Source of the DNA: Candidatus Aenigmatarchaeota archaeon | GTDB taxonomy: Archaea; Aenigmatarchaeota; Aenigmatarchaeia; QMZP01 | DNA length: 64,000 nucleotides | Direction of reading: 5' to 3' | Assembly (NCBI GenBank): GCA_016783545.1 | Contig: JADHWJ010000002.1 | Span: 1,617 to 65,616, forward strand | Shown: positions 294 to 17,990 of the stretch, one piece after another | How the letters are laid out: each line of letters opens with the position of its first letter | Position numbering within the stretch: the first letter of the stretch is position 1 | Program-made: the position numbers and the translations under genes | Notes under the pieces: model-generated | Database searches by the model: none | Seen by the model: the letters and a program-made list of their open reading frames with translations, nothing else | What the model was told of the DNA's origin: nothing

Positions 294-622
294 ATATATT
301 TAAAGATTGGAAGATAATAACATAATAGAGATCTTTGGTCTCTGTTCATATTCACACGATTATTACGTTTGCTTTTACAAACACCAGAGAAGATTTTTTT
401 CTTAGTATTATCTACCCACTTGCTACCTTAGAACGTGTCTCAGGACAGTCTTAGATAGAAAGGGGGTGATCATATCATGGCGCCCACAGACTATGCCTAC
501 AAGCGACGATGTCTGACTGGGCACTTCATTTCTTCTGTTGGAGAATAAAATTGTTCTGGTGGAATCAGACTGGTTGTCCACCATAAGGTGCAGAGTCCAT
601 ACCTAATTGAAGGAATGGGCAA

Positions 623-13632: not shown

Positions 13633-13649
13633 TCCCTTTAAAATGACAA
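13633..13649 (-). repeat. Conserved site copy TTGTCATTTTAAAGGGA
   Basis: Preceded by hairpin 13656-13688 and CTTTATA; followed by a TATA box. Confidence 0.9.
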
Positions 13650-14185: not shown

Positions 14186-14485
14186 CTATTCCTTTCTTTT
14201 TCCGCTGCCATATTTGTTATACCAGCAAAGAATTGTCCATCTGGAAACCTTTATGCCTTCATATCTTTCCAAGTGCTTTTTTGCTTCTGCAAGAGAAAAG
14301 CCCTTTTCATATAAAGAAACAGCTTTCATGATATCTTTTCTACTGAACCTCATTCTCCAATAACCATCATGCAATGTGAATTTCCTTCCGCATTTCTTGC
14401 AAAGCCTAAGTCTTTTCTTAGTCCTATCATTATACCTGTATCCCCTGAATACAATACTTTCTGAATCGCAATATGGGCACTTCAT
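14186..14485 (-). pseudogene. Zn-ribbon + HTH protein resembling an IS6/IS1-type transposase N-terminus; no DDE domain
   Basis: MKCPYCDS..CKKCGRKF, HTH ending VSRWTILCWYNKY; stop before any catalytic domain. Confidence 0.6.
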
Positions 14486-14566
14486 GCTTATCACTCTGTA
14501 CTAAAACTTTTGTTTTCAGAGCTAATAAATGTACTATTAGAGGGATATCTTCCGGCCTTATAAATA

Positions 14567-14583
14567 TCCCTTTTAATTGACAC
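14567..14583 (-). repeat. Conserved site copy GTGTCAATTAAAAGGGA
   Basis: Preceded by hairpin 14594-14615 and CTTTATA; followed by TATTTATAAG. Confidence 0.8.
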
Positions 14584-14589
14584 TATAAA

Positions 14590-15740
14590 GGCAAGGTGGT
14601 CGGCGTAGGCCACCTATGGTCTGGAAATAGGATACTCTCCAAGGATCTCCGGTTCGAAGAGCCAGTTTCAGCCCCGGTACAATGAAGAGGACCGTTTGAG
14701 CGGGATCCTGATCCCAAAATACCGTCATCATTGTGTCGGGGGTTCCAGTGTCCCGTTTCGGCGCGCTCCAATAAAACATAGAGGAGCGATTGGCCGAGGA
14801 CTGTGCCGGGAGGACCCCCTGTGTTGGTGCTTACCTACCGGACCACCATTGCCCACCGAGAGCCTGTAGCCTTATCAGGGCTCGACTCCCGATAATTCCT
14901 ATTATTGGAGGCTTTTGGATTGTCTGTTTTGGGGCTACCTGAGACCACCTCATGTGGGTGGAAAGGTCTCGCCCCGTTTATGGTTCCCTCCCATTAGAAG
15001 GAGACCCTGAAGGATCTCCTGGGAGTCAAGTGCCTCCCCTTCGGTACAACTAACGCTCAGTGGGATAACTCCCCCCACCGTTCGTTACGAATCACATGAG
15101 GTGCGACCCAAGTCAGCCGAATCCGAACCTCATTTGCGTACTCCCCCTTTCGGGTAAGGTGCCCACCATGTTCTGGACGGGTTGGGTGGACACAGGTTGT
15201 CGGTTTCCGGTGCAACCGCCTTGCTAGGACTCCAGTAATCCCAGCTTTCGTGGCAGTTGGTAAGTGGTTGCCTCCGCGAGAGAGCAACCAACAATGCCTA
15301 GTGACTGGCCGAATTGGTGTTTGGCTTTATCTTTCAGTCTTCGCATAACACCCTTCTGCCACCTCGGACGCGAGGTTCAAAGTTGGATGTTAAAGCTAGG
15401 ACTTAGTCCTTGCCCTCGCAATTTGTTCTCCTTCCTTGCGTTGGCTAGTTTTGGCTCCCTTTAGAGCTCATCAGGAAAGCCAGCTTGGCCGAAGGAGATA
15501 TGCCAGTCTTTCAAGGTACGTCCTGATTTATAGAGATACGGTTTCTTGGCCAATAGCTACATAGGGTACTTCAAACGACAAAGCATGATGCAAATCATGC
15601 GTTTGACCTCCTTTCTAGCGGGGAGTAGGGCCATGAAAAAAATTTGGAGGGAGGGAGGCCGCCCGTGTGGGTCAGGCACGGACGACCTCCTGGGAGGGAG
15701 TTGGGTACGTAACCTAAGACAGAGAAAGATGTTAGTTTTC
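14590..15740 (-). ncRNA. Candidate large (~1.15 kb) structured non-coding RNA (island 4)
   Basis: GC-rich, no credible long ORF, dense hairpins; 14-bp helix 15654-15690 and helix 14999-15020 have G-U pairs only on the minus strand; CCC-GAAA-GGG and C-UUCG-G loops on minus. Confidence 0.65.
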
Positions 15741-15820
15741 TAGAAGTAGTACTAAAGAAAAAAATCATCTTCTCTGGGAGTTTGCAAAGCAAACCTTGTG
15801 AACTAATGAATATGAAATGA
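15740..15820 (-). promoter_or_regulatory. Conserved 5' leader shared with island 1, downstream of TATA box TTTAAATA (15851-15858)
   Basis: TTCATATTCA..GTTTGCTTTGCAAACTCCCAGAGAAGATGATTTTTTTCTTTAGTA versus 345-414. Confidence 0.7.
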
Positions 15821-15968
15821 TTAATGATACTTGACAATTCGCTCTTAATATTTAAATACTTATCCCATAAAAGTGGGAATTTCGTAAAGCCTCTTAAGGT
15901 TTCTTTTCCCAAGGGTTTTCTTGGGAGCAATATAAACAAAGAAGGTGGAAGCCTCTAAGAAAAGCCTT

Positions 15969-17990
15969 TTATACGAATTCTATCCTTTCAAACTTGCCTT
16001 TTTTCTCAAATTCCTTTACTGTAGAGATGAAAATAGTTGGCTTTCTCCCGCTTTCATAAGAGAATTTTGCAACTTCCTGTATGATTATGTTCTTTATGGA
16101 AGCGCTGGCGCATAAAAAATATTTGTTCTCTGAGACATCTTTTGCTATCTTGTCCCTGTCAAAACCAGTTTCTACCATAACAGAGATCTTTTTTCCACCT
16201 TCTTCAAATGTAAAGCAGTTCTTCTCTTCATTATATGTCCAGCCACTCTCAGAGAATATTGGATAGACATCATCTATGTTTATCTCCTTTTCCCCTTCTA
16301 TTCTACCAAATTGCTTCTCAAATATGCCCTGGCCAAGTTCTGTAAGATAATAATAATTTAGCTTGTTTTTCCCGACCTTTGCCTGTTTTATCTTAACCAG
16401 ACCAGAATCTATCAGGCCTCTTACATGTTTGTTAAATGTTGAGCCAGAAATCTTTACTGCTTTGTAAATCTGGGAAGTGAACGCAGCCCTGCCTTCACCC
16501 AAGACATGTAGTATATTCCAGCCCTGTTCTTCTAGTTCTTCTATCGGAATTTCGTCTGCTGGCTCCTTTTCAGACGAAGGCTCTTTTAGTCTTGCGAATA
16601 TTTCTGGAACCTGTGCTCTCATATGCTTTCTGACATCCTCATCTTTAATGGCACCTTTTCTCAATGAGTATTTTTTGAACTGGACAAGAAATGGGTCATG
16701 GAAAGCAGACATCCTCATTAGCATAAAACCATGCCCTATTGGTAGTTTTCTTAGATAGATACCCTGTTCTTCATAGTTTAGTCCTAGCATATTACTCGCA
16801 TCTAAGACATCAGACGCGTGTTTAGTATCCAGGCCCAGATTCATGTAGATATGTGTGGACGTGTTACCAAGTGCAGGATATGAAACAAGAGAAGGATGCT
16901 GGTCTATATAAATTATTCCCATACCAAGTTCCCTAATCTCTCTAAATATCAAATCCATGACTGTTTCTATACCAAGTGATGATGATTTTTCCCTATTCAA
17001 TACATGGTGCGCTTCTTCAAGTATAATAACACCCTGAAGCTCTTCCTTTTTCCCATGTATGAGAAGCCAATCTCTTATCCATTGAAGAATAATCTCTATG
17101 AAGAATGCCCTGTCATTTGCATCCAATGCATCTAGTTCTAATATGGTTATCTTTCCTTTCTGGAAAAATTCCGAGGGCTGAATACCTTCTTTGCATTTCC
17201 ATATCTCAGCAATCTCTCTGAAGCAAAGGCTTGCTAGAGGTCTTAGTGAAGTAGAAAGCCAGTTCCTTTCCCTTGATGAAAGAGACTCTCCTCCGTACCC
17301 CTCAAGCCAGCGTTTAATATCTGAAAGAATAGGATGCTGCTTCTCTTCGTGTATAGCATCCAGGCTTTTCATTATAAGATGCCTTCCGCCGCCCATAAGC
17401 ATGTACGCATGATCAAATATAGAAGAAAATTCCTTCATCCATTGGGATATCTGTATACCTTCTGGTGGTTTTAATGGATTGAATTTAAATGGTGCTGGAT
17501 CTCTTCCAATCGTATATACGTTTATGTGATCCTTTAGCTTTGTCTGTAAAAGATCCCTGTAATTTCTTTTGGAGAAATCAAATATCAGAATAGGAACATC
17601 ATTTTCGTTTATCTTATCTATAAGATCATATGCGATGTTTGTCTTTCCATAACCTGTAGAACCGAATATGCCTATGTGTGTAAGAAGCGCGTTCTTTCCT
17701 ATTTTCAGTGGATAGAGTCTTTTCTTTCCATATAGAACTTCTCCTATTTCTATATCACCAGACATTGCTATCTCTTTGTTTGGAGGTTCCATTAGAACAG
17801 AATCCCTTAGATCTTCATCAGAGAATGTAGCAGCCTTCAAAACATCAATAAGCTCAAATATTCTTTTCCTTGTGTCTTCGTCTGCCAGGAGGTATGCTCT
17901 TCCAAGTCTTGTAGCGCTTGCTTTTCCCAAGACAGGGATAAGTCTCTTTATTTCATCTGAAACCAGTCTTTCATGCATTTCTGTAACCAT
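15969..17990 (-). CDS. HerA/FtsK-like (DUF87) ATPase with C-terminal winged helix
   Basis: GIFGSTGYGKT Walker A, IILEEAHH Walker B, RELGMGIIYIDQHPS. Confidence 0.85.
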   Translation of the reverse strand: MVTEMHERLVSDEIKRLIPVLGKASATRLGRAYLLADEDTRKRIFELIDVLKAATFSDEDLRDSVLMEPPNKEIAMSGDIEIGEVLYGKKRLYPLKIGKNALLTHIGIFGSTGYGKTNIAYDLIDKINENDVPILIFDFSKRNYRDLLQTKLKDHINVYTIGRDPAPFKFNPLKPPEGIQISQWMKEFSSIFDHAYMLMGGGRHLIMKSLDAIHEEKQHPILSDIKRWLEGYGGESLSSRERNWLSTSLRPLASLCFREIAEIWKCKEGIQPSEFFQKGKITILELDALDANDRAFFIEIILQWIRDWLLIHGKKEELQGVIILEEAHHVLNREKSSSLGIETVMDLIFREIRELGMGIIYIDQHPSLVSYPALGNTSTHIYMNLGLDTKHASDVLDASNMLGLNYEEQGIYLRKLPIGHGFMLMRMSAFHDPFLVQFKKYSLRKGAIKDEDVRKHMRAQVPEIFARLKEPSSEKEPADEIPIEELEEQGWNILHVLGEGRAAFTSQIYKAVKISGSTFNKHVRGLIDSGLVKIKQAKVGKNKLNYYYLTELGQGIFEKQFGRIEGEKEINIDDVYPIFSESGWTYNEEKNCFTFEEGGKKISVMVETGFDRDKIAKDVSENKYFLCASASIKNIIIQEVAKFSYESGRKPTIFISTVKEFEKKGKFERIEFV

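Follow-up and report, generated by a model that had tools for sequence, protein, structure and literature searches.

An orphan GC-rich, protein-free block at a hypervariable locus of an Aenigmarchaeota genome as a candidate non-coding transcription unit

The closest described counterparts of the sequence considered here are the Hgc RNAs, which Klein, Misulovin and Eddy reportedly described in 2002 as GC-rich non-coding RNA (ncRNA) islands in AT-rich archaeal genomes, and which are said to be 100–200 nt in length, conserved between species, and expressed. Our subject is a GC-rich block of ~1.15 kb at positions 14590–15740 of the window (the whole 64-kb stretch of DNA that was analysed, to which all positions refer unless a contig or locus is named), which comes from contig C12 of an 886-kb, ~70% complete assembly of a member of the Aenigmarchaeota in the DPANN group of archaea. 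Like the Hgc islands, the block is a G+C peak free of open reading frames (ORFs) in an AT-rich archaeal genome and has its own TATA box. Unlike the Hgc RNAs, it is ~1.1 kb long, an orphan which is not conserved in related species, and as yet a putative RNA, and the setting also differs in that the protein-coding islands of this genome are equally GC-rich, so that G+C alone does not indicate RNA.

Two further systems invite comparison. The GOLLD and ROOL RNAs are often found near tRNAs or prophages. Together with OLE they are large ornate RNAs of bacteria (PMC12286853; PMC5737381), and the block resembles all three in size class, in having no ORF, and in lying in variable or mobile-looking DNA; unlike them, it is archaeal, matches none of their Rfam models, shows no conservation or covariation, and has a predicted fold no better than that of controls. 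Integron cassettes with their attC sites, including those of archaeal integrons (10.1101/2022.02.06.479319), resemble the GC-rich islands of this genome in that the latter are compositionally foreign, variable in content, found in one orientation, and each end in a folded segment with a short conserved sequence after it. However, the islands are dispersed and each has its own promoter, with no integrase-adjacent array, and where attC has R''/R' boxes flanking the hairpin, the conserved element here is a 17-mer which follows it and is a family-wide low-copy motif of the host (the island junctions read TTATA plus the 17-mer and T5–7CTTAG rather than GTTRRRY; note that no dedicated attC model was applied). 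The block belongs to no known family, and in kind it resembles the GC-rich ncRNA islands of AT-rich archaea.

We interpret the block, which occupies a hypervariable locus, as a non-coding transcription unit that is peculiar to this genome and read from the minus strand, an interpretation whose chances of being right and wrong we judge to be evenly balanced, and we refer to it as a candidate RNA and not as a demonstrated large ornate RNA. It is set between two minus-strand genes, one for a HerA-like ATPase (15969–17990) and the other for a zinc-ribbon and helix-turn-helix (HTH) protein (14186–14494), and the G+C content of 0.50–0.58 over 14600–15700 falls to 0.31–0.40 on both sides (contigs of the assembly range from 0.33 to 0.385, and the genome as a whole is 36% G+C), in agreement with an earlier note on this DNA which had delimited a GC-rich block at the same positions.

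The block does not code for protein. TAA, TAG and TGA are all present in each of the six frames in similar numbers, which rules out alternative genetic codes and leaves no frame to be rescued by recoding; the longest ORF is 76 aa, and a six-frame scan of the block found no Pfam families. Three minus-strand starts preceded by a Shine–Dalgarno (SD) sequence open ORFs of only 11–14 codons, the sole longer ORF after an SD on this strand being a 40-codon GTG ORF in frame with one of 13 codons. The period-3 Fourier signal was 0.93 for the block and 0.2–1.4 for its thirds, with none detected in 300-nt windows, compared with 7–32 for the GC-rich coding islands of the same genome and 0.56 for a tRNA cassette. 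With 45 GC-rich ORFs from the same genome as the training set for a codon log-odds model, the best 120-nt window of the block scored 8.2 bits, which lies inside the shuffle null (mean 7.0, 95th percentile 10.7), compared with 14–16 bits for small-ORF islands and 19.8 bits for the gene of the island described below. The best SD–ATG frame, read through ten stops and compared with 1.84 billion representative proteins, gave one match which we rejected as spurious because the 40-aa repeat of a repeat protein aligned with it six times, including across a read-through stop. The claim of the earlier note that there was no credible protein here was therefore upheld by the distribution of stops, the lack of periodicity, the shuffle-level codon scores, and the Pfam and protein homologue searches.

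The evidence that the block may be a unit of its own comes from its boundaries. On the minus strand, a TATA box (TATTTAAA, 15851–15858) opens a promoter and AT-rich leader (15715–15870) in which TATA is followed by TTCATATTCA, a GTTTGC..GCAAAC hairpin, CCAGAGAAGA, a tract of seven U residues (U7), and CTTTAGTA; this first U7 tract is at 15758–15764 within the leader and is followed by CTTAGTA, and T7 runs in the block region are found on the minus strand only. The promoter and leader (~150 nt) align with window positions 300–450 on the plus strand, upstream of a GC-rich island we refer to as island 1, which contains a real gene for a secreted protein (period-3 signal 12.4). An nhmmer profile of the leader detected no copy in the genome other than these two (E = 6e-43 and 7e-42), both of which have the U7 tract ~95 nt past the TATA box, and the intervals downstream of HerA in relatives yielded none. 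The block and island 1 have paralogous promoters and leaders, and the layout beyond them is also alike: in the block, a strong SD (AAAGGAGGT, 15606–15614) precedes a 13-codon ORF (MICIMLCRLKYPM, 15557–15598), and in island 1, TAGAAAGGGGGT is followed by a 23-codon ORF, with a TAGAAAGGrGGT SD common to both islands. The TATA box, the shared leader and a 3' site at 14567–14583 had all been listed in the earlier note and are all present, as is the strong ribosome-binding site preceding nothing more than the 13-codon ORF, and with its TATA box, island 1-paralogous leader and common 3' site the block is indeed arranged like the coding islands, as had been proposed.

At the other end of the block is an element (14567–14589, minus strand) consisting of UUUAUA followed by the 17-mer GTGTCAATTAAAAGGGA at 14567–14583. 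We found ~30 copies of the 17-mer in the genome compared with 9 in a reversed-sequence control, and most of these are at the 3' edge of GC-rich islands in the orientation of the cargo, with one ending the tRNA cassette (other sites are at window positions 13633–13649 and 1300–1316, C7 30499, C11 16728 and C13 28804). The element is family-wide and takes the form of a T-rich stretch, then TTGTCAAnTTAAAGGGA, then TATA; the 17-mer itself (TTGTCAnnTTAAAGGGA, with a T-rich or TTATA stretch before it) is found throughout the family in conserved form, at a few copies in each genome. It may serve to terminate transcripts or form their 3' ends, or else be a site of insertion; in relatives its position is between convergent 3' ends, so that in those genomes it is not just a promoter for the gene that follows.

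These boundaries suggest how the unit might work, with transcription, sense strand, RNA ends and any function being what we infer from the DNA. Transcription would start from the TATA box at 15851–15858 on the minus strand and proceed through the ~110-nt AT-rich leader, duplicated from island 1 together with its hairpin and U7 tract, where this tract plus the next hairpin and a second U7 tract may attenuate it. It would then produce ~1.1 kb of GC-rich untranslated RNA with many local hairpins, the last part of which would be a helix-closed 3' domain of ~264 nt, before reaching UUUAUA and the 17-mer at the 3' end. Conservation of the sequence is lacking even among members of the family, and a role, if there is one, would therefore depend on generic properties and not on a conserved ornate fold, for example as a stable hairpin-rich RNA or as cargo placed at the site.

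The locus can be followed across the family by comparing the 3–5 kb downstream of HerA from 20 genomes plus three metagenome contigs (n = 23). A homologue of the Zn-ribbon/HTH protein (52–70% identity) was found 0.26–4 kb downstream of HerA in 8 of the 23 loci; it is convergent with HerA in all eight, and co-directional with it in the genome under study. The 17-mer is located at the far end of the interval in the HerA orientation in five loci (L020, G008, G007, G016 and G027), at 0.65–3.9 kb from the HerA stop codon, and in four of the five it is just before the 3' end of the Zn-ribbon/HTH gene, the fifth being G008 where there is no Zn-ribbon homologue within 5 kb (the 17-mer copies are at L020 8652, L063 1235, L065 4335, L071 1084 and L072 845). 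In G027 (L072) a tRNA-Cys gene also has its 3' end 12 nt before the 17-mer. No alignment of the intervals is possible between genera, and downstream of HerA there are ORF-poor stretches with no strong period-3 signal in G008 (3.5 kb), G019, G028, G331 and L019, with mean folding z-scores of −1.5 to −3.6 in four of these and −1.1 in G331; some intervals carry tRNA or tRNA-like genes, and no other Rfam family was found in any of them. The two bounding landmarks thus keep their positions while what lies between them is replaced from genus to genus, the block being the filling found in this genus.

A broader proposal, which we put forward as speculative and think doubtful, is that the Aenigmarchaeota have a lineage-wide class of long, fast-evolving, hairpin-rich ncRNA units at a fixed locus running from the HerA-like (CedD-like) gene to the T-rich stretch and TTGTCAnnTTAAAGGGA, in which position and end signal are conserved and the body is replaced between genera; the block would be this genus's copy. 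If true, this would be the first large ncRNA class described for DPANN archaea, and it would be recognised by its locus and architecture instead of its sequence; a literature search found no published account of such a HerA-to-17-mer locus class. If the block and the fillings of relatives are real RNAs, they would be evolving too fast for covariation-based discovery and would represent a blind spot of RNA searches, and they would be linked to a DNA-translocase-like gene in host-dependent organisms.

No known RNA could be recognised in the block. Searches with Rfam 15, whose families cover rRNA, RNase P, signal recognition particle (SRP) RNA, group I and II introns, OLE, GOLLD, ROOL, HEARO and ribozymes, found no match at the gathering score within the window, and at E ≤ 10 over 14300–16000 produced only 14–18-bit chance matches to microRNA and small RNA models. 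This is in keeping with the earlier view that the block is not an rRNA, RNase P, SRP, group I or group II RNA. The archaeal RNase P RNA model (RF00373) had no match at E ≤ 1 anywhere in the 70% complete assembly, block included, and the gene for this RNA may simply fall in the missing part; the archaeal SRP RNA gene (RF01857) is located elsewhere, at C15 13369–13638 (131 bits). ARAGORN found no tRNA or tmRNA in the block at the default or 90% threshold and only junk at 80%, and relaxed searches of the block found no C/D-box RNA or Rfam small RNA. Candidates considered by eye were also rejected, including a hammerhead (CUGAUGA is present and GAAA is absent) and C/D-box, group II domain V and RNase P CR motifs, none of which fits the block.

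Homologues were equally elusive. BLAST found no DNA homologue of the block in its own genome, in 60 relatives or in 371 genomes of the phylum, none was found in phage and plasmid collections, and nhmmer comparison with all of the loci retrieved from relatives found no homologue. A comparison with an index of look-alike stretches was likewise negative. Contigs from metagenomes, genomes and viruses were scanned for exact patterns five times: four of these scans found nothing, and in the other a 20-mer matched 14 unrelated contigs of 68–76% G+C by chance. R1, a covariance model of the 3' domain, found only itself in the 371 phylum genomes and nothing in the syntenic loci with filters off, and the collections searched contained no genome of the same genus. 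With no homologue there is no alignment, and therefore no covariation support for a conserved structure of the OLE, GOLLD or ROOL type.

A number of observations weigh against our interpretation of the block as a non-coding transcription unit. An orphan sequence, as this appears to be, gives no evidence of selection, and some fillings of the locus in relatives contain small ORFs with a strong SD, so that the locus is not uniformly RNA. Oligo-T tracts terminate archaeal RNA polymerase, and the U7 tracts at 15758–15764 and 15636–15642 could stop transcription ahead of the GC-rich body; the island 1 gene also needs read-through of the first U7 tract, and the shared leader may therefore be an attenuator. 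There is also no clear oligo-T terminator 3' of the body and none before the Zn-ribbon gene, so that read-through into this gene is possible (the gene has a TATA box of its own at ~14550).

The remaining points against it concern folding. The minimum free energy (MFE) of the whole block gives z-scores of −4.4 for the minus strand and −3.2 for the plus strand against dinucleotide shuffles, with windowed means of −1.9 and −1.2, respectively, and there are nine hairpins with a stem of at least 7 bp compared with 4.9 ± 1.9 in shuffles (z = 2.1). Pieces of GC-rich coding islands of equal length from the same genome, however, give MFE z-scores of −2.9 to −4.9, and the same hairpin count in the coding controls gives z-scores of 0.9–3.4 which span that of the block; shuffled copies of the block and coding islands also yield equally long high-probability helices of up to 19–20 bp. 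By the folding check suggested in the earlier note the block thus exceeds shuffles weakly, and the check is non-discriminating against coding DNA. The stems listed in the earlier note are all present, most of them at high pairing probability by partition function, and include, besides the 14-bp hairpin described below, those at 14999–15020, 15361–15376, 15583–15600 and 14764–14788. Dense stems are thus a true description of the block, yet in this genome are not specific to an RNA gene, and of the phrase 'ornately structured' we retain the density of stems and not the ornate structure, as the statistics are the same as for coding islands and shuffles and there is no homologue or conserved fold. 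Context and a slightly lower z-score make the minus strand the likelier sense strand, as had been suggested, and the block shows no strand asymmetry of G–U pairs. In practical terms, neither a high G+C content nor a good folding z-score sets RNA genes apart from coding islands in this genome, and matched coding controls are needed for claims of structure.

The main rival explanation, which we consider unlikely but deserving of serious attention, is that the block is inert inserted DNA. Here the 17-mer and TTATA junction would be a one-orientation insertion site for foreign GC-rich DNA, captured in the manner of cassettes and integrons, and the block would be gene-less cargo not under selection as RNA. 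In its favour, around a dozen copies of the site have a GC-rich island immediately 5' of them, always in the same orientation, and the same landmark bounds unrelated fillings of 0.65–3.9 kb in five genera; the L072 site, so close to the 3' end of tRNA-Cys, is in a classic attachment-site position, a gene for an IS1/IS6-like DNA-binding protein adjoins the block, and the folding statistics of the block are no better than those of coding DNA. The genome also has three tyrosine recombinases, but these lie on other contigs with none adjacent to the block, and there is no recombinase gene beside the islands. Against this view, the block carries a promoter and leader that are a duplicate of those of a functional island, and with island G+C kept and no coding trace the block is no decaying gene. 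The dinucleotide signature of the block is closer to the host (a distance of 0.123) than to the coding islands (0.174), though we found this signature uninformative as a test of foreign origin, and a family-wide low-copy 17-mer fits a host regulatory or 3'-end element equally well. Were the block inserted DNA, it would follow that insertion occurs at the 17-mer and that this site shapes the variable genome of these symbionts, and we found no published account of a site of this kind.

Less probable still, in our view, is that the block encodes a large RNA with a specific and elaborate tertiary fold, the archaeal counterpart of OLE, GOLLD or ROOL, as the earlier note had favoured. Its length of ~1.1 kb, high G+C and lack of ORFs fit this size class, and the whole-block z-score of −4.4, the excess of hairpins over shuffles (z = 2.1), the predicted helix-closed domains of 206 and 264 nt, and an 11-nt long-range complement could all be read in its favour. 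However, the known members of this class are defined through conservation and covariation, and the block has no Rfam match and no homologue that could be found by BLAST, nhmmer or the 3'-domain covariance model in the 371 phylum genomes and syntenic intervals, nothing comparable in the phage and plasmid collections, and exact-pattern scans that were empty or gave chance matches; coding controls and shuffles match it in structure statistics, and a U7 tract is found 100 nt into the RNA. Positive support for this view comes down to composition and size.

The same U7 tracts raise the prospect of a composite locus, which we think very unlikely, in which a short leader or attenuator RNA ends at the U7 tracts and small RNAs arise from internal promoters, or the block is a very long 5' untranslated region of the Zn-ribbon gene. 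In support of this, two U7 tracts occur early in the unit, the 206-nt domain has a TATA-like CTATAAAT (~15521–15528) shortly before it, no oligo-T run occurs from the block to the Zn-ribbon gene, and the filling in G019 has repeated promoter-like motifs and a tRNA-like gene; against it, the relaxed searches of the block found no tRNA, C/D-box RNA or Rfam small RNA, and the Zn-ribbon gene has its own TATA box at ~14550.

A decayed protein-coding gene or small-ORF cassette is scarcely credible, despite the three SD-preceded starts opening such short ORFs and the existence of other islands with tandem small ORFs and a strong SD for each, as periodicity is missing even at 300 nt, codon log-odds are at the shuffle level, there is no six-frame Pfam match and no real match for the SD–ATG frame, and the keeping of island-level G+C in an AT-rich genome with no residue of periodicity makes decay very unlikely. 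Two such islands, C13 27631–28800 and C11 15732–16727, were considered as sister ORF-less blocks and rejected. Both are GC-rich and contain several tandem ORFs of 60–125 aa in different frames, each with a strong GGAGG SD, and their low overall period-3 signal makes them seem non-coding at first glance.

In order of the putative minus-strand transcript, the predicted structure of the block begins with a 14-bp hairpin (GGAGGUCGUCCGUG/CACGGGCGGCCUCC, 15654–15690) which includes two U–G pairs and has a pair probability of 1.00. This is followed on its 3' side by CUCCCUCCAAA and the second U7 tract (15636–15642), and the whole arrangement (15636–15690) looks like a terminator or attenuator. A predicted 206-nt domain (15303–15508, minus strand) has a 7-bp closing helix GACUGGC/GCCAGUC, an inner 8-bp helix and three hairpins (partition function P = 0.77–0.97), and after this comes a predicted chain of local hairpins over 14855–15295 on the same strand (15265–15290, 15223–15245, 15159–15193, 14999–15038 and 14855–14893; P = 0.90–0.98). 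The predicted multi-branched 3' domain of 264 nt (14590–14853, minus strand) is closed by a bulged 19-bp helix pairing 14833–14853 with 14590–14610 (P = 0.96). The 11-nt complement is perfect on the minus strand (CACCUCAUGUG / CACAUGAGGUG, 14946–14956 and 15093–15103, 136 nt apart) and could be an alternative pairing or a pseudoknot; it competes with two local hairpins.

The HerA-like gene upstream (15969–17990, minus strand) encodes a 673-aa ATPase (DUF87) with a C-terminal winged-helix domain, and was recognised by matches to Pfam DUF87 (2e-14) and HTH domains. The best NCBIfam match was to the CedD DNA-translocating ATPase (E = 3e-21, which is far below the cut-off), with a weak match to the TrwB coupling protein. 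It is a conserved core gene of the family, found in 33 of 47 genomes with homologues that are 50–64% identical, and the closest homologue among 5.8 billion protein clusters has only 60% identity. That a DNA-transport ATPase is encoded beside so variable a locus could be chance or could be meaningful. On the other side of the block, the 102-aa Zn-ribbon/HTH protein (14186–14494, minus strand) is like the N-terminal DNA-binding part of IS1/IS6 transposases (NCBIfam matches to IS6, 3e-05, IS1, 4e-05, and the IS1/IS1595 zinc domain, all below cut-off), stands alone with no transposase catalytic domain, and is a neighbour of the HerA-like gene across genera at 52–70% identity. We regard it as possibly a DNA-binding protein that has been domesticated, and one that may bind the 17-mer.

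Two fillings in relatives merit description in their own right. In G008 (C24 111250–115011, locus L063), the 3.76 kb directly downstream of the HerA-like gene is 50% G+C with almost no period-3 signal and ends at a copy of the 17-mer, making it the largest filling of the locus among those compared. In G019 (contig C4, locus L078), a tRNA-like gene at 1925–2001, whose anticodon loop (tgac) has 8 nt and whose Rfam score is only 34 bits, lies in a GC-rich, non-periodic block in which the motifs ACCTTAGGGCGC, GTTATCATT and GCTATAATCC are repeated (oriented positions 750–1520) and which has the strongest folding z-score among the loci compared (−3.6).

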